From NCBI RefSeq assembly GCF_057098645.1, contig NZ_CM169472.1: DNA of 64,000 nucleotides. One strand, 5' to 3'. The number at the start of each line of letters is the position of its first letter. Position 1 is the stretch's first letter. Below are positions 1-45,655 of this stretch, piece after piece. The notes below the pieces were generated by a model that did no database searches, had not been told where the DNA came from, and saw only the letters and a list, made by a program, of their open reading frames with translations. The translations under genes were made by a program, and so were the position numbers.

Positions 1-170
1 TAGTGCGCTGGGTTATCGCTCGCCACGGGAATATCTGCGGCAGCGGGCTTGTAATGGGTTAAGTGATAACAGATGTCTGGAAATATAGGGGCAAATCCAT
101 CTACAATTGCGACAAAAACAACGATATTAATCAGTTTATGACTGATTTGTTGTACTTTATTCTCTTTCAT
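1..170 (-). CDS. possible small hydrophobic protein, runs to window edge (start ATG at 170-168; MKENKVQQISHKLINIVVFVAIV...)
   Basis: Own translation of minus strand; GAGGAAG Shine-Dalgarno about 6 nt upstream of ATG; hydrophobic segment; not in supplied ORF track because it reaches the window boundary. Confidence 0.25.
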   Translation of the reverse strand, partial: MKENKVQQISHKLINIVVFVAIVDGFAPIFPDICYHLTHYKPAAADIPVASDNPAH

Positions 171-643
171 TGGTACTTCCTCGCTTTAAAAAAGAGCGCA
201 CTTCGTAAGTGCCCTTATATAAATAACGAGTTTGGTCAACCAATTTTTTGACATGTATCACAAATTTGAATAGATGTATTACATCGGCTATCTTTTATTG
301 CACCAACGTCATTGATATATGTCGCCTGAAGTCAGTTCCGGGAATGAGTCTGATCTCAAGACTGGCCCAGTCCTGGCGTTGATTGGCGCTGAGGAGCATA
401 TCGCATCTCATCATAATGTCGTATCTCCTGGGGTGTTATACAAGATATCGTTGTTGGTAACCTGGGCGAGGAATTGAGCTCTATTAAACCGTCAACTATG
501 CCGGATACATACTGGATTACACTGCAGGCACGCCTTATGAGAGAACGTGCCGCAGTGACGGGTTAATTATCTGAAAGAATTTGTGAGGCTGTATCGGTTA
601 CTCATTGATTTGATAGTTTTACTCTCGGGAGAGTAATAGATAT

Positions 644-1786
644 TTAATCCATTAACGGAAACCAGCCAGTTCCTTTCGATGCCTGAATTTGATCCCATAG
701 TTTATCCGGAATGGTTAATTCAGGAACAAGTTGTGGATTAAGGGTTGTTTGAATTTCATGGCCTCTACCTGATTCAGCTAAAGTCACCCATTCTGGATTT
801 ATCACCAGCCCTTTACCGATTGCAACAAGTGGCAGGCCAGTGGAAATTGCTTCTTGAGCCTGAGACGGTGTGCGTATTTTACCTGCAGCGATTACCGGCA
901 CTCTGCCTGCAATATGATTTAAAATCAATTCAATAGTTCGGGGGCCATTTGGCGACTCAACAGGGTAGCTATCGTTAATACTGACCAGCGAGGTATGTAT
1001 ATACGAAATACCGGATGAAATGAGCCGATCAAGGAGTTTATAAGTATCCTCTATCCGCAGCCCCCCTGTTGCAGATTCTTCAGGAGATATTCTGTAACCG
1101 ATGGCAAAGGGCTTTGTCGCATATTCATAGACTACATTTTTTACTTCCTGTAATACGGCCAGCGGGAAGCGCATACGTCCTTCGAGATCTCCTCCCCATC
1201 GGTCATTACGCTGGTTAAATAGAGGGGAGAAGAAATTCTGTAGAAGGAATCCGTGCGCACCATGAAGTTCAATGCCATCAAAACCTGCTTTAATCGCCCT
1301 TTTTGTGACATCTCCGAATGCTCTAATGGTTTCCTGAATTTCGTTTTCAGTCATTTCCCTGCTTTGTACCACTCTCTTCATAAAGTCACCAGATTTTACG
1401 CTTGATGCGCTGGCACTAATAACATCGTTATTTGGTACAAGCTCCGGGATGGCTTTATTACCGGCGTGGAAAACCTGCAAAATAGCCGGAGCACCCCCAC
1501 TTTTGGCTGCCGCTGCTAACTTTTCAAGGCTGTTAATGAAACGGTCGTCATACGCGGCAAATTCATGAGTAAACCCAATGCCGCTTGGCGTGACATAGGT
1601 ACATCCTGTTATTACTAAACCAACATTTTGTGAGCGACGTTTATAAAATTCGAGTTCTTGCTCAGAGATGGTTCCATCAGGATTCGCTGACCAGGTCGTC
1701 ATAGGAGCCATAACGATACGATTACGTAGCTTTATTTTTTCTGTCAGCATAAAAGGAGAAAACAATGATGGGTGTTTATTTGTCAT
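644..1786 (-). CDS. NADH:flavin oxidoreductase, Old Yellow Enzyme family (380 aa)
   Basis: TIM-barrel OYE hallmarks in translation (MAPMTTW N-terminus, HGAHGFLL motif); GAGG RBS upstream of ATG. Confidence 0.8.
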   Translation of the reverse strand: MTNKHPSLFSPFMLTEKIKLRNRIVMAPMTTWSANPDGTISEQELEFYKRRSQNVGLVITGCTYVTPSGIGFTHEFAAYDDRFINSLEKLAAAAKSGGAPAILQVFHAGNKAIPELVPNNDVISASASSVKSGDFMKRVVQSREMTENEIQETIRAFGDVTKRAIKAGFDGIELHGAHGFLLQNFFSPLFNQRNDRWGGDLEGRMRFPLAVLQEVKNVVYEYATKPFAIGYRISPEESATGGLRIEDTYKLLDRLISSGISYIHTSLVSINDSYPVESPNGPRTIELILNHIAGRVPVIAAGKIRTPSQAQEAISTGLPLVAIGKGLVINPEWVTLAESGRGHEIQTTLNPQLVPELTIPDKLWDQIQASKGTGWFPLMD

Positions 1787-2029
1787 AACAATACCTCAAA
1801 TGTTTATCTGATTTTGATGCGTATGTTTTAACTGGTTAGTTGTTGCCAGCTTTGGAACCAAGAGTTCTGGCTTTATTTATAATCCCTTTAAAGGGTTTCT
1901 AATAATCTTAATAATTGAGTTGCTGCTTTTTTGTTTTTTAATGAAATTTCTTTTTGAGTAATTTTATTATTGTTGTGTAGTCAATAAAGGATAAATGTCA
2001 GGGAGATAAGGGATCTCCCTGTAAAATTA

Positions 2030-2950
2030 TTACAAATGTGTTTTATAAAAAGGAATTAATTTATCGAGTGCCTGTTTCACAGGTTCTGGCTTATCATACA
2101 GGTCGTAATGTGAATAACCTTCAACCACGACCAGCTCTTTATGTTTTGAGGCAGCGCGGCCAATAATTTCGCAGCCGTCACGGTAGGCACCAAATGCGCC
2201 CACTCTATCGCCCACCACAACCATTATTGGTTGAGTTAACAGGACTTCTGCAAGATGAAATGCATCCCAACCCACGGCAACAGTCTGATGTGAGAATAGC
2301 GAACGATTTACCCCATTAGGTGCACAGCCTCGTGGCGAACGATAATATTCTGTGGCTTCAAAAAGGTCTATTTCTGTTAATCCCGCTTCAAGAGCTGCAT
2401 CCGGAGAAGAGGGGAGTAAATCATCTACGCGAAGTTTTGCGCCGTTAGCTTCGTCTGTTCTTTGTTGCGCCATTGCTTCGAGTGCTCCGATAGGATTAAA
2501 CGCTGTAAATCCCTCACGCATAAGACGCCCGTAGTTTGCACCCGTGACAGTACCAATAGCTTTAATTCGACGTTCTGTCATTGCGGCATTAATGGCATAT
2601 CCACCTCCACCACAAATACCCAGTACACCAATACGCCCGGCATCAACGTAAGGTAAGCTGGTAAGGTAATCAACGACAATGCTGAAGTCTTTTACTCGCA
2701 TTGTTGGATCTTCCAGATAACGCGGTTCCCCACCGCTGCTTCCCTGAAAACTGGCATCAAAAGCAATGACGATAAAGCCAGCTTTTGCCAGGGCGGCACC
2801 ATACACACTACCCGATGTCTGTTCTTTGCAGCTTCCAATTGGATGGGCGCTGATAATGGCAGGATACTTTTTTTCACTATTAAAATCGTCAGGGAAATAG
2901 ATATCAGCAGCTATATCCCAGTAAGTGTGTTTTATCGAAACAGTTTGCAT
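2030..2950 (-). CDS. alpha/beta hydrolase, dienelactone-hydrolase-like with Cys nucleophile (306 aa)
   Basis: GICGGGG nucleophile elbow (G-x-C-x-G) typical of Cys-type dienelactone hydrolases; GGAG RBS. Confidence 0.7.
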   Translation of the reverse strand: MQTVSIKHTYWDIAADIYFPDDFNSEKKYPAIISAHPIGSCKEQTSGSVYGAALAKAGFIVIAFDASFQGSSGGEPRYLEDPTMRVKDFSIVVDYLTSLPYVDAGRIGVLGICGGGGYAINAAMTERRIKAIGTVTGANYGRLMREGFTAFNPIGALEAMAQQRTDEANGAKLRVDDLLPSSPDAALEAGLTEIDLFEATEYYRSPRGCAPNGVNRSLFSHQTVAVGWDAFHLAEVLLTQPIMVVVGDRVGAFGAYRDGCEIIGRAASKHKELVVVEGYSHYDLYDKPEPVKQALDKLIPFYKTHL

Positions 2951-3106
2951 TTCAAGCTCCGGGGATTTGCCTAAACAGATTTAAATATCATTTCTATTAT
3001 CCGCAACTGGCATTCGTGTTCATATCGAGAACGGCGTAATAGTATGACTTGTATTGGTTATCATCAATGGTCTAATATCTATCACAGTGTTAAGTTAAGG
3101 TTTACA

Positions 3107-4033
3107 ATGATGAAAATAGAGCCTTCAATTTTGCCTTCTCTTGCCTGGTTTGCGCTGATTGTTCGTGCCGGCAGTTTTTCCAGAGCCGCTTCTGAAATGG
3201 GTATTACGCGGGCCGCATTGTCTCAGAATTTAAAATCTCTTGAGGAACGTCTTAACACCAAGCTGATATACCGTACGACCCGCAATATGTCGCTTACTGA
3301 GGAAGGACAGCGTCTGTATGAAGTGCTGGTGTCGGCTTTGGGGCAAATTGATGATGTTTTGAAAGATGTTGGTGATACCCAACTTGAACCTACAGGCCTG
3401 TTGAGAATAAATTCCTCCCGTGTTGCAGCACGGATGCTTGTTGAGCCTCATATTGGCGAGTTTCTTACTCGTTACCCCAAAACAAAGATAGAACTCATTA
3501 TGGATGACGGTTTATCTAACATTATTGCGGACGGCTGTGATGTGGGCATACGTCTTGAGCAAGGACTGGATGAGCATATGACTGCCGTTCCTGTTTCTCC
3601 GCTTATTAAACTGGTTACTGTGGCATCGCCAGATTATTTAAAAGAACACGGTATTCCTGAAACGCCTCAGGAACTGAGTAACCATAATTGCCTTCGGTTG
3701 CGGCATAAAAGTAGCGGTGCACTCTCTGCATGGGAGTTTTCTAATGTTGTGGGGGGTAATGAAGAGTTCGAAATAGAGGTTTCAGGTAAGTATATTTCTA
3801 ATGATGACGAAAGCATGATACGAATGGCGCTGAATGGAACGGGTATCATTCAACATCTGGATTTTGCAATCGCTGAACATATCAATGCGGGCAAGTTACA
3901 GCCGATTCTTGAGGATTGGGCTGTTTCATTTCCTGGATTTTATATTTATGTTTCATCACGGGTGAGAATGCCCTCTAAAGTTCGTGCTTTTATTGATTTT
4001 ATGGTGGAGAAAAGAGTAAAAATAGAAAGTTAA
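3107..4033 (+). CDS. LysR-family transcriptional regulator
   Basis: N-terminal HTH (FSRAASEMGITRAALSQNLKSLEERL) and LysR substrate-binding region; start moved to MMK (3107) from track start 3044 to fit LysR N-terminus and AAGG RBS. Confidence 0.8.
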   Translation: MMKIEPSILPSLAWFALIVRAGSFSRAASEMGITRAALSQNLKSLEERLNTKLIYRTTRNMSLTEEGQRLYEVLVSALGQIDDVLKDVGDTQLEPTGLLRINSSRVAARMLVEPHIGEFLTRYPKTKIELIMDDGLSNIIADGCDVGIRLEQGLDEHMTAVPVSPLIKLVTVASPDYLKEHGIPETPQELSNHNCLRLRHKSSGALSAWEFSNVVGGNEEFEIEVSGKYISNDDESMIRMALNGTGIIQHLDFAIAEHINAGKLQPILEDWAVSFPGFYIYVSSRVRMPSKVRAFIDFMVEKRVKIES

Positions 4034-7591: not shown

Positions 7592-10500
7592 ATGTCACGT
7601 TATAAAACAGGTCATAAACAACCACGATTTCGTTATTCAGTTCTGGCCCGCTGCGTGGCGTGGGCAAATATCTCTGTTCAGGTTCTTTTTCCACTCGCAG
7701 TCACTTTTACCCCAGTAATGGCGGCACGTGCGCAGCATGCGGTTCAGCCACGGTTGAGCATGGGAAATACTACGGTAACTGCTGATAATAACGTGGAGAA
7801 AAATGTCGCGTCGTTTGCCGCAAATGCCGGGACATTTTTAAGCAGTCAGCCAGATAGCGATGCGACACGTAATTTTATTACCGGAATGGCCACCGCTAAA
7901 GCTAACCAGGAAATACAGGAGTGGCTCGGGAAATATGGTACAGCGCGCGTCAAACTGAATGTCGATAAAGATTTCTCGCTGAAGGATTCTTCGCTGGAAA
8001 TGCTTTATCCGATTTATGATACGCCGACAAATATGTTATTCACTCAGGGGGCAATACATCGTACAGACGATCGTACTCAGTCAAATATTGGTTTTGGCTG
8101 GCGTCATTTTTCAGGAAATGACTGGATGGCGGGGGTGAACACCTTTATCGACCATGATTTATCCCGTAGTCATACCCGCATTGGTGTTGGTGCGGAATAC
8201 TGGCGTGATTATTTGAAACTGAGCGCCAATGGTTATATCCGGGCTTCTGGCTGGAAAAAATCGCCGGATGTTGAGGATTATCAGGAACGCCCGGCGAATG
8301 GCTGGGATATTCGTGCTGAGGGCTATTTACCCGCCTGGCCGCAGCTTGGCGCAAGCCTGATGTATGAGCAGTATTATGGCGATGAAGTCGGGCTGTTTGG
8401 CAAAGATAAACGCCAGAAAGATCCACATGCGATTACCGCTGAAGTGAATTACACGCCAGTACCTCTTCTGACCCTGAGTGCCGGGCATAAGCAGGGCAAG
8501 AGTGGTGAGAATGACACTCGCTTTGGCCTGGAAGTTAATTATCGGATTGGCGAACCTCTGCAAAAACAACTCGATACAGACAGCATTCGCGAGCGTCGGG
8601 TACTGGCAGGCAGCCGCTATGACCTGGTTGAGCGTAATAACAACATCGTTCTTGAGTACCGCAAATCTGAAGTGATCCGTATTGCTCTGCCTGAGCGTAT
8701 TGAAGGTAAGGGCGGTCAGACACTTTCCCTGGGGCTTGTGGTCAGCAAAGCAACTCACGGACTGAAAAATGTGCAGTGGGAAGCGCCGTCATTACTGGCT
8801 GAAGGTGGCAAAATTACCGGTCAGGGTAGTCAGTGGCAAGTAACGCTCCCGGCTTATCGTCCAGGCAAAGACAATTATTATGCGATTTCTGCGGTTGCCT
8901 ACGATAACAAAGGCAATACCTCAAAACGCGTGCAGACAGAGGTGGTCATTACCGGAGCTGGTATGAGCGCCGATCGCACGGCGTTAACGCTTGACGGTCA
9001 GAGCCGTATTCAAATGCTTGCTAACGGTAATGAGCAAAAACCGCTGGTGCTGTCTCTGCGCGACGCCGAGGGCCAGCCAGTCACGGGCATGAAAGATCAG
9101 ATCAAGACTGAACTAGCCTTCAAACCGGCTGGAAATATTGTGACTCGTTCCCTGAAGGCCACTAAATCACAGGCAAAGCCAACACTGGGTGAGTTCACCG
9201 AAACTGAAGCAGGGGTGTATCAGTCTGTCTTTACTACCGGAACGCAGTCAGGTGAGGCAACGATTACTGTTAGCGTTGATGGCATGAGCAAAACCGTCAC
9301 TGCAGAACTGCGGGCCACGATGATGGATGTGGCAAATTCCACCCTGAGCGCTAACGAGCCGTCAGGTGACGTGGTTGCTGATGGTCAGCAAGCCTATACG
9401 TTGACGTTGATTGCGGTGGACTCCGAGGGTAATCCGGTGACGGGAGAAGCCAGCCGCTTGCGATTTGTTCCGCAAGACACTAATGGTGTAACCGTTGGTG
9501 CCATTTCGGAAATAAAACCAGGCGTTTACAGCGCCACGGTTTCTTCAACCCGTGCCGGAAACGTTGTTGTGCGTGCTTTCAGCGAGCAGTATCAGCTGGG
9601 CACATTACAACAAACGCTGAAGTTTGTTGCCGGGCCGCTTGATGCAGCACATTCGTCCATCACCCTGAATCCTGATAAACCGGTGGTTGGGGGTACAGTT
9701 ACGGCAATCTGGACGGTAAAAGATGCCTATGACAACCCTGTGACCAGCCTCACGCCGGAAGCGCCGTCATTAGCGGGTGCCGCTGCTGAAGGTTCTACGG
9801 CATCGGGCTGGACAAATAATGGTGATGGGACGTGGACTGCGCAGATTACTCTCGGCTCTACGGCGGGTGAATTAGAAGTTATGCCGAAGCTAAATGGACA
9901 GAATGCGGCAGCAAATGCGGCAAAAGTAACCGTGGTGGCTGATGCGTTATCTTCAAACCAGTCGAAAGTCTCTGTCGCAGAAGATCACGTAAAAGCCGGC
10001 GAAAGCACAACCGTGACGCTGGTGGCGAAAGATGCGCATGGCAACGCTATCAGTGGTCTTTCGTTGTCGGCAAGTTTGACGGGGACCGCCTCTGAAGGGG
10101 CGACCGTTTCCAGTTGGACCGAAAAAGGTGACGGTTCCTATGTTGCTACGTTGACTACAGGCGGAAAGACGGGCGAGCTTCGTGTCATGCCGCTCTTCAA
10201 CGGCCAGCCAGCCGCCACCGAAGCCGCGCAGTTGACGGTCATCGCCGGAGAGATGTCATCAGCGAACTCTACGCTTGTTGCGGACAATAAGGCTCCGACC
10301 GTCAAAACGACGACGGAACTCACCTTCACCGTGAAGGATGCGTACGGGAACCCGGTCACCGGGCTGAAGCCAGATGCACCAGTGTTTAGCGGTGCCGCCA
10401 GCACGGGGAGTGAGCGTCCTTCAGCAGGAAACTGGACAGAGAAAGGTAATGGGGTCTACGTGGCGACCTTAACGCTGGGATCTGCCGCGGGTCAGTTGTC

Positions 10501-11845
10501 TGTGATGCCGCGAGTGAACGGCCAAAATGCCGTTGCTCAGCCACTGGTGCTGAATGTTGCTGGTGACGCATCTAAGGCTGAGATTCGTGATATGACAGTG
10601 AAGGTTAATAACCAACTGGCTAATGGACAGTCTGCTAACCAGATAACCCTGACCGTCGTGGACAGCTATGGTAACCCGTTGCAGGGGCAAGAAGTTACGC
10701 TGACTTTACCGCAGGGTGTGACCAGCAAGACGGGGAATACAGTAACAACCAATGCGGCAGGGAAAGTGGACATTGAGCTTATGTCAACGGTTGCGGGAGA
10801 ACACAATATTTCCGCTTCGGTGAATGGTGCTCAGAAGACGGTCACGGTGAAATTCAACGCGGATGCCAGCACCGGTCAGGCAAACCTGCAGGTAGACACC
10901 GCCGTTCAAAAAGTGGCAAACGGCAAAGATGCCTTTACGCTGACGGCGACCGTTGAGGATAAAAATGGTAACCCTGTTCCAGGGAGCCTGGTGACCTTTA
11001 ATCTGCCCCGGGGTGTCAAGCCGCTTACAGGCGATAATGTCTGGGTGAAAGCCAACGATGAGGGGAAAGCAGAGTTGCAGGTGGTTTCAGTGACTGCCGG
11101 AACGTATGAGATCACGGCATCGGCAGGGAATAGCCAGCCTTCGAATACGCAGACTATAACGTTTGTAGCCGATAAGGCTACCGCAACCGTCTCCGGTATT
11201 GAGGTGATTGGCAACTATGCGCTGGCGGACGGCAAAGCCAAACAAACGTATAAAGTTACGGTGACTGATGCCAATAACAACCTGTTGAAAGATAGCGAAG
11301 TGACGCTGACTGCCAGCCCGGCTTCGTTAAACCTGGAACCGAATGGCACTGCGACAACGAATGAGCAAGGGCAGGCTATTTTCACCGCTACCACTACTGT
11401 TGCGGCGACATACACACTCAAGGCGCAAGTGAGTCAGAACAATGGTCAGGTATCAACGAAAACTGCCGAATCTAAATTCGTTGCGGATGATAAAAACGCG
11501 GTACTCACCGCATCATCTGATATGCAATCTCTGGTGGCGGATGGGAAATCGACTGCGAAGCTGGAGGTGACACTGATGTCGGCAAACAACCCCGTTGGGG
11601 GGAATATGTGGGTCGACATTCAGACGCCGGAAGGGGTGACGGAGAAGGATTATCAGTTCCTGCCGTCGAAAAATGACCATTTCGTGAGCGGAAAAATCAC
11701 GCGTAAATTTAGTACCAGCAAGCCTGGTGTCTATACGTTCACATTTAACGCCCTGACGTATGGCGGGTACGAAATGAAGCCAGTGACGGTGACCATTACC
11801 GCGGTGGATGCCGATACGGCAACGGGCGAGGAGACGATGAAATAA
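7592..11845 (+). CDS. fdeC: intimin/invasin-family adhesin FdeC (EaeH), full length 1417 aa
   Basis: Single uninterrupted ORF; N-terminal intimin-like beta-barrel region followed by long Thr/Val/Gly-rich repetitive Ig-like passenger; K-12 carries only a truncated eaeH at this locus (from memory). Confidence 0.9.
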   Translation: MSRYKTGHKQPRFRYSVLARCVAWANISVQVLFPLAVTFTPVMAARAQHAVQPRLSMGNTTVTADNNVEKNVASFAANAGTFLSSQPDSDATRNFITGMATAKANQEIQEWLGKYGTARVKLNVDKDFSLKDSSLEMLYPIYDTPTNMLFTQGAIHRTDDRTQSNIGFGWRHFSGNDWMAGVNTFIDHDLSRSHTRIGVGAEYWRDYLKLSANGYIRASGWKKSPDVEDYQERPANGWDIRAEGYLPAWPQLGASLMYEQYYGDEVGLFGKDKRQKDPHAITAEVNYTPVPLLTLSAGHKQGKSGENDTRFGLEVNYRIGEPLQKQLDTDSIRERRVLAGSRYDLVERNNNIVLEYRKSEVIRIALPERIEGKGGQTLSLGLVVSKATHGLKNVQWEAPSLLAEGGKITGQGSQWQVTLPAYRPGKDNYYAISAVAYDNKGNTSKRVQTEVVITGAGMSADRTALTLDGQSRIQMLANGNEQKPLVLSLRDAEGQPVTGMKDQIKTELAFKPAGNIVTRSLKATKSQAKPTLGEFTETEAGVYQSVFTTGTQSGEATITVSVDGMSKTVTAELRATMMDVANSTLSANEPSGDVVADGQQAYTLTLIAVDSEGNPVTGEASRLRFVPQDTNGVTVGAISEIKPGVYSATVSSTRAGNVVVRAFSEQYQLGTLQQTLKFVAGPLDAAHSSITLNPDKPVVGGTVTAIWTVKDAYDNPVTSLTPEAPSLAGAAAEGSTASGWTNNGDGTWTAQITLGSTAGELEVMPKLNGQNAAANAAKVTVVADALSSNQSKVSVAEDHVKAGESTTVTLVAKDAHGNAISGLSLSASLTGTASEGATVSSWTEKGDGSYVATLTTGGKTGELRVMPLFNGQPAATEAAQLTVIAGEMSSANSTLVADNKAPTVKTTTELTFTVKDAYGNPVTGLKPDAPVFSGAASTGSERPSAGNWTEKGNGVYVATLTLGSAAGQLSVMPRVNGQNAVAQPLVLNVAGDASKAEIRDMTVKVNNQLANGQSANQITLTVVDSYGNPLQGQEVTLTLPQGVTSKTGNTVTTNAAGKVDIELMSTVAGEHNISASVNGAQKTVTVKFNADASTGQANLQVDTAVQKVANGKDAFTLTATVEDKNGNPVPGSLVTFNLPRGVKPLTGDNVWVKANDEGKAELQVVSVTAGTYEITASAGNSQPSNTQTITFVADKATATVSGIEVIGNYALADGKAKQTYKVTVTDANNNLLKDSEVTLTASPASLNLEPNGTATTNEQGQAIFTATTTVAATYTLKAQVSQNNGQVSTKTAESKFVADDKNAVLTASSDMQSLVADGKSTAKLEVTLMSANNPVGGNMWVDIQTPEGVTEKDYQFLPSKNDHFVSGKITRKFSTSKPGVYTFTFNALTYGGYEMKPVTVTITAVDADTATGEETMK

Positions 11846-21926: not shown

Positions 21927-23159
21927 TTACCAGGTCACATTGATACCAACTACACCCTGTAGCGGATTCTCAATGTCGTCACCTTTGGTGTAGTCAAGGC
22001 TTGCATATGCTCCCATGTTTTTGGTGATATCAGCCTGTACACCTGCACCCACGCGGAATGCTGCACCGTCAATGCTGGCATTGACAGACTCATCACCCAG
22101 ACGGACTTTGTTGCCATCAGAGAATTCGTTCAGTGCGGCCAGATTCAGATAAGGTTTAACGCTCGCGTTGCCCACAGCGAAGTCATAACCCACGCGCGTA
22201 CCGGCCTCACCCAGCACAGAATTATAGCTGTCAGAATGAACGTTCACGCCGTTGAGTTGATAATCCACACCTTCCAGCGTCAGCGCAGACAGTTTGGCAT
22301 ATGGCTGAATAAACAGGCCATTACCGTCTTTCCATGTGTAACCGCCTTTAACCATCGCACCGAAACCATTGGTGTTAAAGTCAGCTTTGATGGTACCGCC
22401 ACCATTCATCAGGCGAACATCTGCCGTGTTGCTGTAGTGACCAAACTGTGCAGCAGTATCAATGAAGATACCGTTGTTATACTGGCGGCTCAGGTAAGCG
22501 TGGAAGCTGTAACCTTCAGTGTCGCCTTTGCTCTGCATGGTGGTCATGTCACCTTTCGCAGAAGACATCGCCACACCGGCCAGCCAGCTACCATCTTCAG
22601 TCATGAAGCGGGTATCACCACCCAGCATTACACCGTTTACATCCAGGTCATAGGATGCATTTCCCGCGGTGGTATGTTTCTGTTTACCGCCAAAGTACTG
22701 AATCCATACGCCGCCCTTGTCATTTTCGCTCAGACGGACAGCATCCTGACGGGCTGAGAGCGTGTCAGCCTGCAGATTAGCGACGTTAGCCGGAGCAGCT
22801 GCCATTGCCTGAATCACGGAGCTGGCGTTGGATGCTTTATGCGTGTTTTTTACGAAATAAAAGTTACCATCAGCTCCCTGTGTCAGGTCATATTGATACA
22901 GACCACCTTCCGTTGTGCCTGTGGCTTTTAGAGTGCTGTCTTTGCCGGTAGAAATAAATGCCGTTTGTTCATTGATAAGATCCAATGAACCCGCACTGTA
23001 AACACGCAAGTCACCGCTCGCTTTACCGCTGATATCCAGAGTGTTTTCAGAAGAGGCATCAACAATCAGAGTGCCGTTTTGAGAAGCAAACGTGCCAGTA
23101 TTGACTGTAGCCTTCGTGATATTAACCGTACTGTCTTTTACTGCCAGAGCATCAACTGA
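21927..23159 (-). pseudogene. autotransporter remnant: C-terminal beta-barrel translocator plus partial passenger, 5' part replaced by IS
   Basis: ORF 21927..23009 ends ...YTKGDDIENPLQGVVGINVTW (aromatic C-terminus, alternating beta-strand pattern); passenger-like sequence continues in other frames up to the IS end at 23160; no N-terminal signal peptide present. Confidence 0.7.
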
Positions 23160-23198
23160 ACCGCCCCGGGTTTCCTGGAGAGTGTTTTATCTGTGAAC

Positions 23199-24089
23199 TC
23201 AGGCTGCCAGATCATCGTTTCCGATGGAAGTATAATAAGCTTTTTCTGCTTCTGCCGGAGGAGTATGGCCCAGCCTTTCCAGCAATCGTCGATTGTTATA
23301 CCAGTCCACCCACGTGAGTGTGGCCAGTTCCACTTCTGCACGGTTTTTCCAGCTCTTACGGTGTATTACCTCCGCTTTGTAAAGACCATTGATGCTCTCC
23401 GCCATCGCGTTGTCATACGAGTCGCCTGTACTTCCTGTTGATGCCAGTAATCCGGCTTCCTTAAGCCGCTGTGTGTAGGCCAGCGATACATACTGAGAAC
23501 CTTTATCACTGTGATGGACCGTGCCGGACGGTCGACGGGCCCATAACGCCTGCTCCAGTGCATCCAGCACGAATGTCGTCTCCATGGACGATGAGACCCG
23601 CCACCCCACAATGTATCCGGCAAACACATCAATGATGAACGCCACATAGACGAAGCCCTGCCATGTGCTGACGTAAGTAAAATCAGCCACCCACAGCTGG
23701 TCAGGTCGTTCTGCCACGAACTGACGGTTTACGCGGTCGCCTGCGGCAACGGCTTTCCGGCTGATGGTCGTACGGACCTTTTTACCCCGGAGAACACCGG
23801 CAAGTCCCATAACCGCCATGAGACGTGCCACAGTGCATCTGGCCACTCTGATACCTTCCCGTAACAACTGACGCCAGACTTTACGCACACCGTATACCTT
23901 GTGATTTTCATCGTATACGCGCTGTATCTCTTTCTTCAGCCAGTCATCGCGCTGCGCACGGGCACTGCGTTTATCCGGATGATGTCGCTGTTGCTGACAG
24001 TGGTAATACGTTGACGGGGCAATATGCAGTTCGCTGCATAGCGGTCCGACCCCGTACTGCTCACGCAGCTTATCCAGCAGTGGCATCAT
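23199..24089 (-). CDS. IS3-family transposase OrfB (DDE integrase domain)
   Basis: 296 aa with integrase-core; overlaps orfA by ATGA as in frameshift-fusion transposases. Confidence 0.85.
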
Positions 24090-24412
24090 TTTTTCCAGAG
24101 GCGGTCGAACTCCGCCTTCGCAAAATAAGCGGAAGCCTGGCGAAGGATATCGTTACTGCGGCGCAGTTCACGATTTTCACGCTCCAGCTCTTTCAGACGC
24201 TGACGTTCAGCGGTGGTGAGCCCTCCATCACCGCCCCCGGTATCCCGCTCATGCTGGCGAACCCAGACACGCAGAGTCTCCGGCGTACAGCCAATCTTTG
24301 GAGCAATGGAACAAATTGTCGCCCATTGTGAGTCATATTCGCCCTGACTTTCCAGAACCATACGGACTGCCCGTTGACGGACTTCAGGGGAAAAACGAGT
24401 ATTTTTAGTCAT
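24086..24412 (-). CDS. IS3-family transposase OrfA (HTH plus leucine zipper)
   Basis: 108 aa [19 protein letters not shown]...; matches remembered IS629 OrfA. Confidence 0.85.
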
Positions 24413-24624
24413 CCTGTTTACCTCTTTCTCAGGAAGTTTAGTCTCCAGGATTCCCGGGGCGGTTCACGCATCCTTCCCTCACAGATGTCAGTACGCCAGC
24501 ACGCTGTACAGGCTGTACAGCGTGCCTCCCAATCCTGCAGCCCAGAGCAGTAGAAATATTTTGGCTCCTACACTGTAGCGAGTCCGTATGCGCCGCAGTG
24601 GGGGGGAGTAACAACGCTGCTGTG

Positions 24625-33295: not shown

Positions 33296-33867
33296 TTGTT
33301 ATTGCATAAAACCGCGCCATGTTTGCATATGGCGCGGGAATCATTGACTCGCTGTAAAAAATTATGCATATATTATATATGATTGTCATGTCATATCCTG
33401 AAATTCCTCTTGTATCACTTCATGATTTTATATTTTATTAATTAACGATTTTATTTTGTATTAGCTGAATGGATTCAGTCCTATAGGGTTATATATTTAT
33501 TAATAAGACGATTCTTATATTTGGATACCTAATAAGAATTACCACTTTTACCGACTGTATATTAAATGTATTTCTCCTGCTTTTGTTTATATTTTGAGTT
33601 GATTTGAGTTCCCGGATACATATAATGCGCAGGTATTAGAGACTGGGGGGAATGTAATGATAAAGTTAAGAGTGTTAACTTAAAATAAGTTTTCAGTAGT
33701 AACTTGCTATTTTATTACCCTCTGAACTACATACTCAGATATGTGGTTGCCAATGCTATGCAAAATTTTTGAATTTTTATATGCGATGAACAGTAACCGG
33801 AATGGCATTTAATGCGTTGCTGTTTATGCAATCTTGGTTTTATTTGGATGTATTGCTGGAGATTGTG

Positions 33868-36800
33868 ATGAATAAAATATATCGGCTAAAGTGGAACAGG
33901 TCCCGTAACTGTTGGAGCGTCTGCTCGGAGCTGGGGAGCAGAGTAAAAGGAAAAAAGTCCCGGGCTGTTTTAATTAGCGCGATAAGTTTATATTCATCTC
34001 TGGTATTCGCCGATGATGTCATCGTAAACCAGGATAAAACTATTGATTTTGGCAAAGAGAACCAGAGCATCGATTACCGTATTACGGTGACAGACAATGC
34101 CAATCTGGTAATCAATGCGACAGATACTTCCCGTCCGCGTCTGACTCTCGCTTCTGGTGGTGGGTTGGATATTACCGGAGGAAAGGTAACAATCAATGGC
34201 CCACTTAACTTTTTGCTGAAAGGTACGGGGTTCCTGAATGTCTCCAATGCTGGCAGCGAGTTATATGCTGATGATTTGTATGAATCAAACTCAGGCATGA
34301 GACACGATCGCGGCTATTTTAATGTTTCCAACGGCGGCAAAATCCATGTTAAGGGCACCAGCCGTCTGACCTATTTGCAGGGAAATGTCAGCGGTGAAGG
34401 CAGCCAGGTAAATTCTAAAACCTTCTTTATGGGCGTTTACGGCAGTTACGGTGGCAATCAGTACCTGTCAGTTAATAACGGCGGTGAAGTTAATGCCAGT
34501 GAGAAAATTAGCCTGGGTTATTATGATCAAAACTCCGATACAACACTTGCTGTTTCGGAAGGTGGTAAAATCTCTGCGCCGACTATTAGTTTAAGCACCA
34601 ACTCTGAGTTAGCGTTAGGTGCACAGGAAGGAAGCGCAGCGAAGGCTGCAGGGATTATTGATGCCGAAAAAATTGAGTTTGTGTGGGCAAAGACATCCGA
34701 GAAGAAAATCACCTTAAACCACACGGATAAAAACGCGACTATTTCCGCGGATATTGTCAGTGGCAGCGAGGGCCTGGGCTATATCAATGCGCTCAATGGC
34801 ACGACTTACTTAACCGGGGATAACTCCGCCTTTAGCGGTAAAGTCAAAATTGAGCAAAATGGCGCTTTAGGGATCACCCAAAATATAGGTACAGCAGAAA
34901 TCAACAACCGCGGGAAATTACACCTGAAGGCTGACGATAGCATGACCTTTGCCAATAAGATTTCCGGCAATGGTACAATAAGTATCGACAGTGGGACAGT
35001 GGCACTGACCGGCAATAACTATGCATTCAGCGGATATATTGATGTCGCTTCTGGTGCTGTCGCGGTTATTTCTGAAGACAAGAACATCGGACGTGCGGAC
35101 CTGGATGTTGATGGCAAATTGCAAATTAATGCCAACAAAGATTGGGTATTTGATAACGATCTTGAAGGTAGAGGCATTGTTGAAATAAACATGGGGAATC
35201 ACGAATTCTCCTTCGATGAGTTTGCTTATACAGACTGGTTCCAGGGTTCACTGGCGTTCCAGAACACGACATTTAACCTGGAAAAGAATGCTGAGTTTCT
35301 GCAGAGAGGCGGGATCACTGCGGGTCAGGGAAGTCAGGTAACAGTAGGTAAGGGCGTTCATTCTATTAGCACTCTGGGATTCTCCGGCGGAACGGTTGAT
35401 TTTGGTGCCCTGGCAGCTGGTGCACAGATGACAGAAGGGACCGTCAACGTTAGTAAAAAGCTGGATTTGCGCGGCGAGGGTGTGATTCAGGTTTCTGACA
35501 GTGACGTTGTAAGCTCAGTATCTCGTGATATTGACTCTGCGTTATCGCTCACTGAAGTCGATGATGGTAACAGCACCATTAAGTTGGTTGATGCGCAAGG
35601 TGCGGAAGTTCTGGGCGATGCGGGCAATCTGCAATTGCAGGATAAAAATGGGCAAATCCTCTCCAGCAGCGCCCAACGTGATATTCAGCAGAATGGGCAA
35701 AAAGCGGCCGTCGGCACTTACGACTATCGTCTGACGAGTGGGGTAAACAATGACGGTCTGTATATCGGTTACGGCCTGACCCAGCTTGATTTACACGCTA
35801 CCGACAGCGATGCTCTGGTGCTGAGCTCTAACGGTAAAAGCGAGAATGCCGCCGATCTCAGCGCAAAGATTACCGGCAGTGGTGACCTGGCATTCAGCAG
35901 CCAGAAGGGTCAGACCGTATCGCTTTCTAACAAAGACAACGACTATACCGGTGTTACCGATCTGCGCAGTGGAACGCTTTTGTTGAATAACGATAACGTG
36001 TTGGGTAATACCCATGAACTGCGTCTGGCGGCAGAGACTGAACTGGATATGAATGGTCACAGCCAGACCGTGGGCACGCTCAATGGCAGCGCCGATTCAC
36101 TGCTGAGCTTAAATGGCGGCAGTCTGACGGTTACCAACGGGGGCACTTCAACCGGTTCGTTAACGGGGAGCGGAGAGCTGAATATTCAGGGCGGCACGCT
36201 GGACATCGCGGGCGATAACAGCAACCTGACGGCGAATGTGAACATTGCTAATTCGGCTAATGTCCTGGTAAGTCATGCGCAGGGATTGGGTAGCGCAAAC
36301 GTTGAGAACAACGGTACCCTGGCGTTGAATAATAGCGCTGAAAAAAGAGCGGCTGCGTCTGTGAATTACACCCTGGGCGGCAATCTGACCAACAACGGTA
36401 CGCTGATGACCGGAATGTCAGGTCAGCAAGCTGGCAATGTGTTAGTGGTGAAGGGGAACTACCACGGTAATAACGGTCAACTAGTAATGAATACGGTACT
36501 GAATGGCGATGACTCAGTAACCGATAAATTGGTTGTCGAGGGCGATACTAGCGGCACGACTGCCGTTACGGTGAATAACGCTGGCGGTACAGGTGCGAAA
36601 ACCCTTAACGGTATCGAACTTATCCATGTAGACGGTAAGTCTGAGGGCGAATTTGTTCAGGCTGGGCGTATCGTTGCGGGGGCGTATGACTACACTCTCG
36701 CGCGTGGACAAGGGGCAAATAGTGGTAACTGGTATCTGACCAGCGGCAGTGATTCTCCTGAACTGCAGCCGGAGCCAGACCCGATGCCGAATCCGGAGCC

Positions 36801-37851
36801 AAACCCGAATCCAGAGCCGAACCCTAACCCGACACCTACGCCGGGTCCGGATCTGAATGTGGATAATGACCTGCGACCGGAGGCGGGTAGCTACATTGCG
36901 AACCTTGCAGCAGCGAATACCATGTTCACCACGCGTCTGCATGAGCGTCTGGGTAATACGTACTATACCGACATGGTGATGGGTGAGCAGAAACAAACCA
37001 CTATGTGGATGCGCCATGAAGGTGGTCATAATAAATGGCGTGATGGCAGCGGCCAGCTGAAAACCCAAAGCAATCGCTATGTTCTGCAACTGGGAGGTGA
37101 TGTCGCGCAGTGGAGCCAAAACGGCAGCGACAGCTGGCATGTTGGGGTCATGGCGGGATATGGCAACAGCGACAGCAAAACCATTTCCTCGCGAACCGGT
37201 TATCGTGCAAAAGCGAGTGTGAACGGATATAGCACAGGCCTCTATGCCACCTGGTATGCCGATGACGAGTCGCGTAATGGCGCGTATCTCGACAGTTGGG
37301 CGCAGTACAGCTGGTTTGATAACACAGTGAAAGGGGATGACTTACAAAGTGAATCCTATAAATCAAAAGGACTTACCGCTTCACTGGAAGCTGGATACAA
37401 ACACAAATTAGCTGAATTTAATGGCAGCCAGGGAACGCGTAATGAATGGTATGTTCAGCCGCAAGCACAGGTTACCTGGATGGGAGTCAAAGCCGATAAG
37501 CACCGCGAAAGCAACGGAACCCTCGTTCATAGCAACGGTGATGGCAATGTTCAAACCCGACTTGACGTAAAAACCTGGCTGAAGAGCCACCATCAAATGG
37601 ATGACGGTAAATCCCGCGAGTTCCAGCCGTTTGTAGAAGTGAACTGGCTGCATAACAGTAAGGATTTCAGCACCAGTATGGATGGCGTGTCCGTCACTCA
37701 GGATGGAGCCCGAAATATTGCTGAGATAAAAACCGGGGTGGAAGGACAGCTAAATGCCAACCTGAATGTCTGGGGGAATGTGGGCGTTCAGGTTGCCGAT
37801 AGGGGATATAATGACACCTCTGCAATGGTTGGCATTAAGTGGCAATTCTGA
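33868..37851 (+). CDS. ehaA: AIDA-I-type autotransporter adhesin, EhaA-like (~1327 aa)
   Basis: Extended signal peptide MNKIYRLKWNRSRNCWSVCSELGSR; repetitive Gly/Asn/Thr-rich passenger; Pro-rich linker PEPDPMPNPEPNPNPEPNPNPTPTP; C-terminal beta-barrel ending ...MVGIKWQF; start moved from track 33802 to the signal-peptide Met. Confidence 0.85.
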   Translation: MNKIYRLKWNRSRNCWSVCSELGSRVKGKKSRAVLISAISLYSSLVFADDVIVNQDKTIDFGKENQSIDYRITVTDNANLVINATDTSRPRLTLASGGGLDITGGKVTINGPLNFLLKGTGFLNVSNAGSELYADDLYESNSGMRHDRGYFNVSNGGKIHVKGTSRLTYLQGNVSGEGSQVNSKTFFMGVYGSYGGNQYLSVNNGGEVNASEKISLGYYDQNSDTTLAVSEGGKISAPTISLSTNSELALGAQEGSAAKAAGIIDAEKIEFVWAKTSEKKITLNHTDKNATISADIVSGSEGLGYINALNGTTYLTGDNSAFSGKVKIEQNGALGITQNIGTAEINNRGKLHLKADDSMTFANKISGNGTISIDSGTVALTGNNYAFSGYIDVASGAVAVISEDKNIGRADLDVDGKLQINANKDWVFDNDLEGRGIVEINMGNHEFSFDEFAYTDWFQGSLAFQNTTFNLEKNAEFLQRGGITAGQGSQVTVGKGVHSISTLGFSGGTVDFGALAAGAQMTEGTVNVSKKLDLRGEGVIQVSDSDVVSSVSRDIDSALSLTEVDDGNSTIKLVDAQGAEVLGDAGNLQLQDKNGQILSSSAQRDIQQNGQKAAVGTYDYRLTSGVNNDGLYIGYGLTQLDLHATDSDALVLSSNGKSENAADLSAKITGSGDLAFSSQKGQTVSLSNKDNDYTGVTDLRSGTLLLNNDNVLGNTHELRLAAETELDMNGHSQTVGTLNGSADSLLSLNGGSLTVTNGGTSTGSLTGSGELNIQGGTLDIAGDNSNLTANVNIANSANVLVSHAQGLGSANVENNGTLALNNSAEKRAAASVNYTLGGNLTNNGTLMTGMSGQQAGNVLVVKGNYHGNNGQLVMNTVLNGDDSVTDKLVVEGDTSGTTAVTVNNAGGTGAKTLNGIELIHVDGKSEGEFVQAGRIVAGAYDYTLARGQGANSGNWYLTSGSDSPELQPEPDPMPNPEPNPNPEPNPNPTPTPGPDLNVDNDLRPEAGSYIANLAAANTMFTTRLHERLGNTYYTDMVMGEQKQTTMWMRHEGGHNKWRDGSGQLKTQSNRYVLQLGGDVAQWSQNGSDSWHVGVMAGYGNSDSKTISSRTGYRAKASVNGYSTGLYATWYADDESRNGAYLDSWAQYSWFDNTVKGDDLQSESYKSKGLTASLEAGYKHKLAEFNGSQGTRNEWYVQPQAQVTWMGVKADKHRESNGTLVHSNGDGNVQTRLDVKTWLKSHHQMDDGKSREFQPFVEVNWLHNSKDFSTSMDGVSVTQDGARNIAEIKTGVEGQLNANLNVWGNVGVQVADRGYNDTSAMVGIKWQF

Positions 37852-37873
37852 TCTGAATAATGAGTAAAAGGAG

Positions 37874-37915
37874 AGAGAGCCGAATGGGAGATAATTCGGC
37901 TCTCTGTGTCATTTT
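37874..37915 (+). terminator. rho-independent terminator after the autotransporter gene
   Basis: agagagccgaat / attcggctctct 12-bp stem, 8-nt loop, followed by T-rich gtgtcattttctt. Confidence 0.65.
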
Positions 37916-37992
37916 CTTGCAGCCAGCTTTATCCGTCAGAGTGAAGACTCGCAGATTTAGCTGGCGCACAAGATTTAATCAAGGTGTGTTCA

Positions 37993-39081
37993 ATGGCTTC
38001 GCATGATTTGAGTGTTTTTTTGGAAGAGTTCGGGGCAACGGTGAATTTGACGTTGCCTGGTATCGTGTCCGAAAAAGAACGGCTTTTACTCAAGCTGCTA
38101 ATGGAGGGAATGTCGGTTACAGAAATCTCACAGTACAGAAATCGCAGTGCAAAGACAATTTCACATCAAAAGAAGCAGCTGTATGAAAAACTAGGCATCC
38201 AGAGTGATATTACCTTCTGGCGGGATATCTTTTTTCAATATCATCCGCAAGTCATCAGTGGCACGGGAAATAAAAATAATTTTTATATCCCTGATAACCG
38301 TTGTCACCATATCGTCACGCCTGAAGCCATCAGTCTGGCGTTGGAAAACCACGAATTCAAACCGTGGATCCAACCGGTTTTCTGCGCGCAGACTGGGGTA
38401 CTGACGGGCTGTGAGGTGCTTGTCCGCTGGGAACATCCACAAACGGGAATCATCCCGCCGGATCAGTTTATTCCTCTGGCGGAGTCATCCGGTCTTATTG
38501 TCATAATGACCCGCCAACTGATGAAACAGACTGCGGATATTCTGATGCCGGTAAAACATTTGCTGCCGGATAATTTCCATATTGGTATCAACGTCTCGGC
38601 GGGTTGTTTTTTGGCCGCGGGATTTGAAAAAGAATGCCTGAACCTGGTCAAGAAATTAGGAAACGATAAAATCAAACTGGTTCTCGAGCTAACGGAACGT
38701 AACCCTATTCCGGTAACGCCAGAAGCCAGAGCGATATTTGACAGCCTTCATCAGCACAACATTACCTTTGCGCTGGATGACTTTGGTACGGGTTATGCGA
38801 CCTATCGTTATCTGCAGGCGTTTCCGGTCGATTTTATTAAGATCGATAAGTCATTTGTGCAAATGGCGAGTGTCGACGAAATCTCCGGTCATATTGTGGA
38901 CAATATTGTCGAACTGGCGCGTAAGCCTGGTCTGAGTATCGTAGCGGAAGGGGTAGAGACCCAGGAGCAGGCGGATTTAATGATCGGTAAAGGCGTTCAC
39001 TTTTTGCAGGGCTATTTGTACTCCCCGCCAGTTCCGGGTAATAAATTTATCTCTGAATGGGTAATGAAAGCAGGTGGTTGA
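37993..39081 (+). CDS. pdeL: c-di-GMP phosphodiesterase PdeL (YahA), LuxR HTH plus EAL domain
   Basis: N-terminal LuxR HTH, C-terminal EAL (ELTER, DDFGTGYA); 362 aa from ATG 37993. Confidence 0.9.
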   Translation: MASHDLSVFLEEFGATVNLTLPGIVSEKERLLLKLLMEGMSVTEISQYRNRSAKTISHQKKQLYEKLGIQSDITFWRDIFFQYHPQVISGTGNKNNFYIPDNRCHHIVTPEAISLALENHEFKPWIQPVFCAQTGVLTGCEVLVRWEHPQTGIIPPDQFIPLAESSGLIVIMTRQLMKQTADILMPVKHLLPDNFHIGINVSAGCFLAAGFEKECLNLVKKLGNDKIKLVLELTERNPIPVTPEARAIFDSLHQHNITFALDDFGTGYATYRYLQAFPVDFIKIDKSFVQMASVDEISGHIVDNIVELARKPGLSIVAEGVETQEQADLMIGKGVHFLQGYLYSPPVPGNKFISEWVMKAGG

Positions 39082-40901: not shown

Positions 40902-41507
40902 ATGAGTATAAAAAATCTACCTGCCGACTATTTATTGGCTGCACAACAGGGTGATATCGATAAAGTAAAAAACTGCCTTGCGCTGGGTGTCGATATTAAT
41001 ACCTGCGACCGTCAGGGGAAAACGGCAATTACGCTGGCAAGTTTATATCAGCAATATGCTTGCGTTCAGGCATTAATTGACGCCGGAGCGGATATTAATA
41101 AACAAGATCATACCTGTTTAAATCCTTTTTTAATTAGCTGTCTGAACGATGATTTAACGCTACTACGAATTATTTTACCGGCTAAACCCGATCTTAATTG
41201 CGTAACCCGTTTTGGCGGTGTCGGCCTGACGCCTGCCTGTGAAAAAGGCCATTTAAGTATTGTAAAAGAGCTTTTGGCGCATACGGAGATTAACGTTAAC
41301 CAGACCAACCATGTAGGCTGGACGCCGCTACTGGAAGCGATTGTGCTTAATGATGGTGGTATTAAACAGCAGGCGATTGTGCAGTTATTGCTGGAACACA
41401 GTGCCAGCCCGCATCTGACCGATAAATATGGCAAAACGCCACTGGAACTGGCGCGAGAACGGGGCTTTGAAGAGATTGCGCAGTTACTGATTGCCGCAGG
41501 TGCATAA
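40902..41507 (+). CDS. yahD: ankyrin-repeat protein YahD
   Basis: Repeated ankyrin motifs (GKTAITLAS, GWTPLLEA, GKTPLELA). Confidence 0.85.
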   Translation: MSIKNLPADYLLAAQQGDIDKVKNCLALGVDINTCDRQGKTAITLASLYQQYACVQALIDAGADINKQDHTCLNPFLISCLNDDLTLLRIILPAKPDLNCVTRFGGVGLTPACEKGHLSIVKELLAHTEINVNQTNHVGWTPLLEAIVLNDGGIKQQAIVQLLLEHSASPHLTDKYGKTPLELARERGFEEIAQLLIAAGA

Positions 41508-45378: not shown

Positions 45379-45655
45379 GCCGGATGCGGCGTGAACGCCT
45401 TATCCGGCCTACGAATGGCGCAAGAATCTGTAGGCCTGATAAGCGTAGCGCATCAGGCATTTGTCACCATTGCCGGATGCGGCGTGAACGCCTTATCCGG
45501 CCTACAAGTGGCGCAAGAATTTGTAGGCCTGATAAGCGTAGCGCATCAGGCATTTGTCACCATTGCCGGATGCGGCGTGAACGCCTTATCCGGCCTACGA
45601 GTGGCACGAGAATTTGTAGGCCTGATAAGCGTAGCGCATCAGGCAATTTGGCGTT
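45379..45655. repeat. REP/BIME cluster, three tandem ~60-bp units
   Basis: gccggatgcggcgtgaacgccttatccggcctac ... ctgataagcgtagcgcatcaggca repeated three times; track ORFs here are artefacts of the repeat. Confidence 0.9.

Follow-up and report, generated by a model that had tools for sequence, protein, structure and literature searches.

The window analysed here, a stretch of 64,000 nucleotides from contig NZ_CM169472.1 (NCBI RefSeq assembly GCF_057098645.1), was found to carry between betT and pdeL an open reading frame (ORF) that is, on the grounds of its sequence, ehaA, the single gene of O-island 15 (OI-15) of Escherichia coli O157:H7. The interval from the betT stop codon to the pdeL start codon comprises positions 33296–37992, exactly as delimited in an initial annotation of this DNA, which had recognised an autotransporter of about 1327 amino acids (aa) in this place and had likened it to EhaA. 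Taken as a whole, the locus is very probably best explained as an old alternative form in which ehaA, encoding a type Va autotransporter adhesin, lies downstream of a promoter region of the pdeL type.

The ORF is listed at 33802–37851 on the plus strand (1349 codons). Translation from the ATG at 33868, which is preceded by GGAG at a distance of 6 nt and equals the RefSeq start in near-identical genomes, gives a product of indeed 1327 aa with the N-terminus MNKIYRLKWN. The left flank was identified as betT by the NF007399 model (1315 bits), and the start of pdeL annotated in a near-identical genome is the equivalent of window position 37993. In K-12 MG1655 the betT–pdeL spacer measures only 874 bp and holds the 24-aa gene yahV, in agreement with the earlier statement that betT of K-12 adjoins yahA (pdeL) without ehaA.

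EhaA of the window shares 1307 of its 1327 residues with EhaA of O157 (98% identity over the full length, no gaps), and the gene order betT-ehaA-pdeL is the same in O157. OI-15 of strain EDL933 is 4643 bp long (379203–383845) and contains ehaA (z0402) as its single ORF (PMC8565820), while the breakpoints between K-12 and the window, at 33336 and 37977, enclose 4642 bp. EhaA (z0402/ECs0362) of E. coli O157:H7 goes back to Wells et al. 2008 (cited in PMC8565820 and PMC9289746); the gene and O-island 15, on record since 2008, are already known. When the whole interval was used as a megablast query with a coverage of at least 80%, ehaA was found in 1385 of 5426 complete E. coli genomes, where RefSeq labels it 'autotransporter adhesin EhaA', and the closest DNA match of the interval was strain 95-3192 (99.9%). 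The gene is a routine entry in virulence-gene screens. The comparison with EhaA which the initial annotation had proposed, the RefSeq label and the absence of the gene from the K-12 locus all uphold its identification, and neither of the two observations that it had named as contradictory, a serine-protease motif of the SPATE (serine protease autotransporters of Enterobacteriaceae) class or presence of the gene at the K-12 locus, was made.

A few database records carrying the locus deserve mention. RefSeq CM135829 and CP060946 are, respectively, a genome labelled 'DH5alpha' that contains ehaA and a 4.79-Mb genome labelled 'O157:H7 str. EC10' that contains a K-12-type pdeL; both genomes are probably mislabelled as to strain. 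In a metagenome-assembled genome of Collinsella sp., a contig of 5.1 kb encodes E. coli EhaA (98% aa identity) and the start of PdeL (100%), most likely as a result of contamination during binning.

Two forms of the locus

The 572 bp preceding ehaA (33296–33867) have a GC content of 0.315 as compared with 0.497 for the window and contain no ORF of at least 50 aa, as had been observed earlier (about 570 bp of AT-rich DNA devoid of ORFs). Judging from its sequence, this DNA is a diverged orthologue of the promoter region of pdeL in K-12. The orthology is based on two exact shared words, their conserved spacing and their conservation in several species. The first word is a Cra-like palindrome, GCTGAATGGATTCAGTC, which occurs as an identical 17-mer in K-12, 499 bp upstream of pdeL, and is the sole match to the Cra consensus GCTGAANCGNTTCA at up to one mismatch in the 64-kb window. 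The second is a 12-mer, CATATAATGCGC, shared by window positions 33336–33867 and the K-12 spacer and situated in an ungapped block with 31 of 42 identical positions by hand count (33 of 60 over a longer stretch). The distance between the two words is 155 bp in the window and 158 bp in K-12, and at least two shared words of at least 12 nt were obtained in only 0.2% of dinucleotide-preserving shuffles.

Two collinear footprints are common to the window, K-12 and four other Escherichia loci. The promoter block, 155–158 bp from the Cra-like box, is kept in all seven Escherichia loci. Six of them have both footprints, irrespective of whether ehaA or pdeL comes next; the contig of E. albertii stops short of the Cra-like box, and the promoter block alone is visible there. 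The Cra-like 17-mer is identical in K-12, O157 and E. whittamii and has one substitution in two loci lacking ehaA. A strict local alignment of the K-12 spacer with the DNA upstream of ehaA returned the Cra-like box only, and overall alignment was dropped as a basis for orthology.

In K-12 the betT–yahA spacer contains a promoter of the RpoD holoenzyme, TTGATC-16-TATAAT, which was found by genomic SELEX and bears an H-NS flag (Shimada et al. 2014, PMC3946193). The pdeL promoter region of K-12 is co-activated by Cra and PdeL and silenced by H-NS (bioRxiv 10.1101/2021.10.01.462762; PMC5052742); a Cra site has been reported in it, along with PdeL boxes and H-NS sites, and it operates a bistable switch of cyclic di-GMP (c-di-GMP) (bioRxiv 10.1101/2021.10.01.462762). 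From the corresponding site in the window (Table 1), transcription of ehaA would start near 33633, with a 5'-untranslated region of about 235 nt. Silencing by H-NS, which the AT-richness had suggested at the outset, is plausible, as the orthologous region of K-12 is silenced experimentally and carries the H-NS flag in SELEX; for the window region itself it would follow by orthology. In K-12 yahV (positions 7803–7877 of the K-12 locus) reaches as far as the Cra-like box, and window positions 33336–33463 hold nothing that corresponds to it, the upstream region of the ehaA class being about 200 bp shorter than that of K-12 on the yahV side. No RNA family of Rfam was detected within 33296–37992.

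The difference from K-12 does not end with ehaA. The variable block extends from 33336 to about 38360, taking in the diverged regulatory DNA, ehaA with the hairpin behind it and the initial third of pdeL. Its left edge, at 33335/33336, falls in the 3' arm of the hairpin that follows betT, where the alignment with K-12 stops 40 bp past the betT stop codon. On the right, pdeL is 71–89% identical to its K-12 counterpart in 100-bp windows over the first ~370 bp and 93–100% identical thereafter, and the two PdeL proteins differ at 24 amino acids, of which 23 are located at residues 2–104. No direct or inverted repeats were found at the boundaries of the block and no integrase, insertion sequence (IS), other mobility gene or tRNA next to it, and the GC content of ehaA (0.496) equals that of the window (0.497).

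The 5' part of pdeL (368 bp) had an identity of at least 95% in 1394 genomes, 80–90% in 3761 and an intermediate value in three; across 5154 genomes its identity was distributed bimodally. A junction query running from the 3' end of ehaA across the spacer into the start of pdeL was contiguous in 1381 genomes; in all others it matched only from ~15 bp before the ATG of pdeL, at about 82–83%. Thus, the pdeL 5' allele is almost perfectly linked to ehaA. Comparison of the betT–pdeL junctions among E. coli genomes, recommended in the initial annotation, assigned the ehaA form to 1385 of the 5426 genomes and a spacer of K-12 type to 3656. RefSeq names the ehaA-linked pdeL (37993–39081) 'EAL domain-containing protein' and the K-12-type allele PdeL, so that surveys based on annotation would under-count pdeL in ehaA-positive strains such as O157:H7.

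A species scan with PdeL, using one genome per species, confined full-length orthologues to Escherichia, while relatives outside the genus (Citrobacter and others) share the EAL domain only, at no more than 50% identity; therefore, there is no outgroup to polarise the two forms. In E. whittamii, EhaA (92% aa identity) is encoded directly upstream of a window-type pdeL. In the type strain of E. albertii the promoter region is followed by three collinear ehaA fragments, equivalent to window positions 34931–35056, 36982–37214 and 37506 onwards, the third continuing across the spacer and on into pdeL; by its sequence this is a decayed copy of ehaA. Escherichia sp. E1V33 lacks ehaA and has a K-12-type pdeL allele, as does a genome bearing the label E. 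coli. Codons 1–122 of pdeL group by ehaA class (identity to the window 88.8% for E. albertii and 82.2% for K-12), and codons 123–362 group by species (97.2% for K-12 and 82.4% for E. albertii).

The bet operon is absent from E. whittamii, E1V33 and the representative labelled E. coli, where three ORFs of the size of ykgE, ykgF and ykgG abut the spacer; ehaA travels with pdeL and not with betT. In E. whittamii the terminal 33 bp of betT have been retained together with the hairpin following it (positions 3253–3290 of the E. whittamii locus, equivalent to window 33263–33337), which suggests that the bet operon was deleted in this species rather than inserted in E. coli.

As divergence continues into pdeL, the upstream DNA is orthologous, other Escherichia species have the same forms, and a signature of mobility or of deviant GC content is lacking, these sequence comparisons indicate that the locus is an ancient dimorphism and not a recent insertion. 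The K-12 segment between the promoter and pdeL (positions 8045–8371 of the K-12 locus) had no detectable similarity to window 33296–38000.

Table 1 Features of the betT–pdeL interval and of pdeL, in coordinates of the window.
Feature	Position	Strand	Remarks
GC-rich hairpin directly 3' of betT stop	33312–33337		Terminator scan
AT-rich regulatory region, diverged but by its footprints orthologous to the promoter region of K-12 pdeL	33336–33867	+	GC about 0.31; two conserved footprints
Cra-like palindrome GCTGAATGGATTCAGTC	33464–33480		Matches Cra-box consensus; putative
Predicted sigma-70 promoter TTGATT-16-TATAAT	33599–33626	+	Top promoter-like site in 33200–38100
ehaA coding sequence	33868–37851	+	1327 codons and stop
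Signal peptide, including extended signal peptide region (ESPR, residues 1–38)	33868–34014	+	Pfam PF13018, E 2.2e-9
Passenger domain, residues 50–960	34015–36747	+	Predicted right-handed beta-helix
Autochaperone domain, residues 839–944	36382–36699	+	Pfam PF18883, E 3.9e-28
Pro/Asn/Glu-rich spacer, residues 963–995	36754–36852	+	From sequence; Tandem Repeats Finder (TRF) period 18/12
Translocator: alpha-helical linker and beta-barrel, residues about 1001–1327	36868–37848	+	TIGR01414, PF03797, 4MEE
ehaA–pdeL spacer, 141 bp	37852–37992	+	K-12 homology resumes at 37978
Hairpin, 12-bp stem, 8-nt loop, then GTGTCATTTTCTT	37874–37905	+	Probably terminates ehaA transcription or attenuates its read-through to pdeL
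5' third of pdeL, codons 1–122 (N-terminal tail, LuxR-type helix-turn-helix, linker)	37993–38360	+	ehaA-linked allele, about 82% to K-12
Rest of pdeL (EAL domain)	38361–39081	+	97% to K-12; outside variable block

Probable promoter use and history of ehaA

The promoter and the Cra-like box that precede pdeL in K-12 lie upstream of ehaA in the window, and the promoter is for this reason expected to drive ehaA, which is probably transcribed under silencing by H-NS and activation by Cra and PdeL, as far as the shared motifs permit this to be judged. No consensus-like sigma-70 site was detected on the plus strand in 34528–38100, and pdeL may accordingly depend on read-through. The hairpin downstream of ehaA has a calculated stability of about -22 kcal/mol, with six GC pairs, and ATTTTCTT follows after five partly paired bases; the U-run UUUU-C-UU begins 5–6 nt past the main stem and is thus short and displaced. 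O157, E. whittamii and E. albertii have the stem and the T-run in conserved form and vary in the loop. It had been described as a clean terminator, which holds for the 12-bp stem and its stability and less so for the T-run. Comparison of the ehaA–pdeL spacer with the K-12 spacer disclosed no similarity beyond the last ~15 bp.

We tentatively propose that in about a quarter of E. coli, including enterohaemorrhagic E. coli (EHEC) O157:H7, the promoter of the pdeL switch, tuned by c-di-GMP, drives ehaA and, by read-through, pdeL. Both the adhesin and PdeL would in this way depend on metabolic flux and on the c-di-GMP state, and the two forms of the locus, each with a PdeL N-terminal region that co-varies with it, would be an ancient trans-species polymorphism. 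In the ehaA form, pdeL would be reached by transcripts passing the hairpin or else from a weak promoter that escaped detection. Several points weigh against the account of the locus given here. The transcription start, the use of the promoter by ehaA and the read-through are all deduced from sequence, and it would be unusual for an adhesin to be induced when c-di-GMP is low. The Cra-like box, which was judged by the consensus, departs from it at one position of the central CG. Apart from the two footprints, divergence between the classes precludes a significant alignment (z = 3.3 with cheap gaps), and each species is represented in the comparison by a single genome.

The proposal has to be weighed against an arrangement of independent units, in which ehaA alone is driven by the conserved promoter, transcription ends completely at the hairpin, and pdeL has a promoter of its own, in the 141-bp spacer or the ehaA 3' end, and is regulated unlike its K-12 counterpart. 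This is quite conceivable, if short of probable: the hairpin is stable, has a T-run behind it and shows conservation in three species, and the spacer 3' of it is well conserved, which could reflect promoter or operator elements. The lack of a consensus-like sigma-70 site on the plus strand from 34528 to 38100 and the shortness of the T-run, 5 nt off the main stem, speak against it.

It is unlikely that ehaA is a silent relic, intact though silenced by H-NS, heading to decay and contributing nothing in the window strain. The AT-rich upstream region, with an H-NS-silenced orthologue in K-12, would fit such a state, as would the loss of ehaA through internal deletions in E. albertii, the IS-interrupted or truncated copies seen in some E. 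coli and the fact that the published phenotypes come largely from overexpression in K-12 (PMC8565820). Yet the ORF of 1327 codons is intact and of the same length as the O157 allele, and the protein of E. whittamii, at 92% aa identity with a single indel, located in the linker, points to purifying selection. Moreover, an ehaA deletion mutant adhered less well in pig ileal loops (PMC8565820).

Less likely still is a recent genomic island, that is, horizontal insertion of ehaA with its AT-rich flank into a K-12-like betT–pdeL junction. K-12 and ~67% of complete E. coli genomes lack the segment and have an unrelated-looking spacer of 820 bp in its place, its flank is AT-rich, and it is catalogued as OI-15. 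However, the locus lacks integrase, IS, tRNA and flanking direct or inverted repeats, ehaA has the mean GC content of the window, and divergence reaches 370 bp into pdeL; the supposed flank carries, in orthologous form, the pdeL promoter of K-12 and its Cra-like box; the same layout occurs in E. whittamii and, decayed, in E. albertii, whose pdeL 5' part is nearer to the ehaA class than that of K-12 is. An acquired island was largely rejected on these grounds, since with no repeats, mobility genes or GC deviation and with three Escherichia species involved, only the presence/absence polymorphism fits it. The initial wording, an adhesin inserted between betT and pdeL, is correct as to the position of ehaA; the term inserted does not agree with these observations.

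To our knowledge, mechanistic work on the pdeL promoter has all been done in K-12. Yet ~25% of E. coli genomes have an adhesin gene of 4 kb, followed by a hairpin, between the promoter and pdeL, and in them the allele of the PdeL N-terminal region is different. Should the proposed coupling prove true, ehaA would gain a concrete regulatory input, of relevance to c-di-GMP signalling and to EHEC colonisation, and the K-12 model of pdeL autoregulation would not be transferable unchanged to EHEC. In the searchable literature no paper was found that links ehaA to pdeL regulation, Cra or c-di-GMP, nor any mention of a block including the 5' third of pdeL, of old trans-species forms or of ehaA between the promoter defined in K-12 and pdeL. 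These comparative inferences on the ehaA/pdeL locus are of moderate interest and do not amount to a new kind of element.

The EhaA protein and its relatives

EhaA is a type Va (classical monomeric) autotransporter adhesin, having an ESPR signal peptide, a C-terminal translocator and a predicted beta-helical passenger with autochaperone. The extended signal-peptide motif, the linker of the PNPEPNP type and the C-terminal beta-barrel reported at first were all recovered (Table 1). Cleavage of the signal peptide is expected after VFA(49), in ...SLVFA/DD. An AlphaFold2 model of the passenger, built from an alignment of 37 diverse homologues chosen from 2611 matches in a representative library, consists almost entirely of short strands (mean predicted local distance difference test, pLDDT, 90.4; predicted template modelling score, pTM, 0.76). 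Many of the matches in the homologue search were giant autotransporters that repeat the EhaA core module up to 15 times. In a Foldseek search of the model against the PDB the significant matches were all autotransporter beta-helices (IcsA, Ag43, Hap and IgA1 protease), with pertactin, UpaB and TibA as weaker ones. The passenger is thus predicted to be a beta-helix with a C-terminal autochaperone. The latter resembles that of IcsA (3ML3) in sequence (E 1.4e-28, 39% identity) and in fold (template modelling score, TM, 0.79; root-mean-square deviation 2.9 A), and residues 734–966 match IcsA fragments when the sequence is searched against the PDB, in which the N-terminal ~730 residues found no sequence relative with a solved structure.

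The passenger had been called repetitive, and a count of its repeats in different strains had been advised. Neither TRF on the DNA nor self-BLASTP on the protein detected repeats in it, and Pfam matches to PATR were weak (the Pfam scan covered residues 1–1200); to judge from the model, the repetition is structural, in the rungs of the beta-helix, and not one of sequence, so that the count is inapplicable. The sole DNA tandem repeats of the interval (TRF) are at 36787–36832, in the Pro-rich linker, which also accounts for the only length variation between orthologues, an indel of 6 aa in E. whittamii. The translocator was recognised by TIGR01414 (411 bits against a cutoff of 16, residues 853–1327) and PF03797, and residues 1001–1327 match the beta-domain of AIDA-I (4MEE, E 1.1e-91); by this homology the barrel would have a 12-strand topology.

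The protein had been classed as AIDA-type, which applies to its beta-domain and in a broad sense; passenger and autochaperone are closest to IcsA, and the phylogenetic classification of 2022 places EhaA in Group 8 (IcsA, MisL, ShdA, YfaL) and AIDA-I in Group 4. The AIDA-I model NF033176 gave 338 bits against a cutoff of 1200, restricted to residues 1001–1327, and the Pfam scan found no AIDA repeat family. Partial NCBIfam matches to MisL, ShdA and YfaL were likewise all far below the curated family cutoffs. That EhaA is a non-adhesin autotransporter of the protease, esterase or toxin class, an option which no observation favoured, can practically be dismissed: the GDSGS motif is absent from the protein, the Pfam scan returned no protease or lipase domain, and the best relatives are the adhesins EhaA of O157 (98% identity), MisL, ShdA, YfaL and IcsA.

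The type Va secretion scheme is established knowledge, and the steps proposed for EhaA are based on it and on published work with the 98%-identical O157 allele. The ESPR signal peptide would direct export by Sec, and the C-terminal domain would form an outer-membrane beta-barrel inserted by the beta-barrel assembly machinery (BAM) and the translocation and assembly module (TAM). The passenger would then be threaded outward with its C-terminus first, and the autochaperone segment, folding first, would nucleate the long right-handed beta-helix. Retained on the cell surface, EhaA may promote cell-cell aggregation, biofilm formation and attachment to epithelial cells from the terminal rectum of cattle. 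EhaA of O157 is reported to be located at the surface and, when overexpressed in K-12, to cause aggregation, biofilm formation and adhesion to primary terminal-rectum cells of bovine origin; its residues 989–1327 serve as a beta-domain for display (PMC3781032). Exposure of the passenger through its own barrel, as reported for the 98%-identical O157 allele, would by analogy apply to the window protein. No host receptor of EhaA is known in the autotransporter literature.

Neighbouring loci and known systems

The 64-kb window contains three outer-membrane adhesin loci: ehaA, fdeC and a truncated autotransporter gene. The inverse autotransporter adhesin fdeC lies at ~7592–11845, about 22 kb upstream, according to the annotation of a near-identical genome. 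An IS3-family element on the minus strand (23157–24465; orfA 24086–24412, orfB 23199–24089), within which the ALIL frameshift pseudoknot RF01497 was found at 24015–24131, stands in place of 1508 bp found in strain 95-3192, which is otherwise 99.9% identical. Lost with this DNA are hyxA and the 5' portion of the second autotransporter gene, of which a barrel-containing ORF of 360 aa (21927–23009) remains. Beside it, at 24625–26335, are hyxR (a regulator of LuxR type, named after the annotation of 95-3192) and a tyrosine DNA invertase of the ipbA/fimX family (NF007370), a layout resembling the phase-variable locus of UpaE type (PMC6083910).

Downstream of pdeL, yahD (40902–41507), encoding an ankyrin-repeat protein, is intact in the window and split into two pseudogene pieces in 95-3192 owing to a duplication of 124 bp there. 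Two tandem naRNA4/CssrE elements (RF02564) of the repetitive extragenic palindromic type occur on the minus strand at 45433–45502 and 45526–45595 (78 bits each), close to the yahG/yahI junction by the coordinates of a near-identical genome.

With respect to known autotransporters, EhaA shares with AIDA-I a very similar beta-domain (4MEE) and the type Va layout with a beta-helical passenger, and differs from it in lacking the AIDA repeat domain in the Pfam scan and in belonging to another phylogenetic group. IcsA/VirG of Shigella, a member of Group 8 like EhaA, provides the closest solved passenger and autochaperone (3ML3, 5KE1). MisL, ShdA, YfaL/EhaC, EhaJ, UpaE and AatA are adhesins of the same group, although EhaA scores far beneath the family cutoffs and its N-terminal ~730 residues are without a solved relative. 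EhaA of O157 is the same protein in length (1327 aa), with 98% identity and no gaps, and its locus, flanks, upstream motifs and terminator hairpin are alike; the window allele, from a non-O157 relative, has 20 amino-acid substitutions.

As compared with K-12 PdeL, the ehaA-linked protein differs between residues 25 and 83 at positions 38 and 64 only, and K60 is unchanged. The promoter region of pdeL in K-12 has in common with the window the Cra-like 17-mer, the TTGATY-16-TATAAT promoter, their mutual spacing and their position relative to the left flank, whereas the gene next to these elements in the window is ehaA, with pdeL 4.4 kb further downstream, behind the hairpin.

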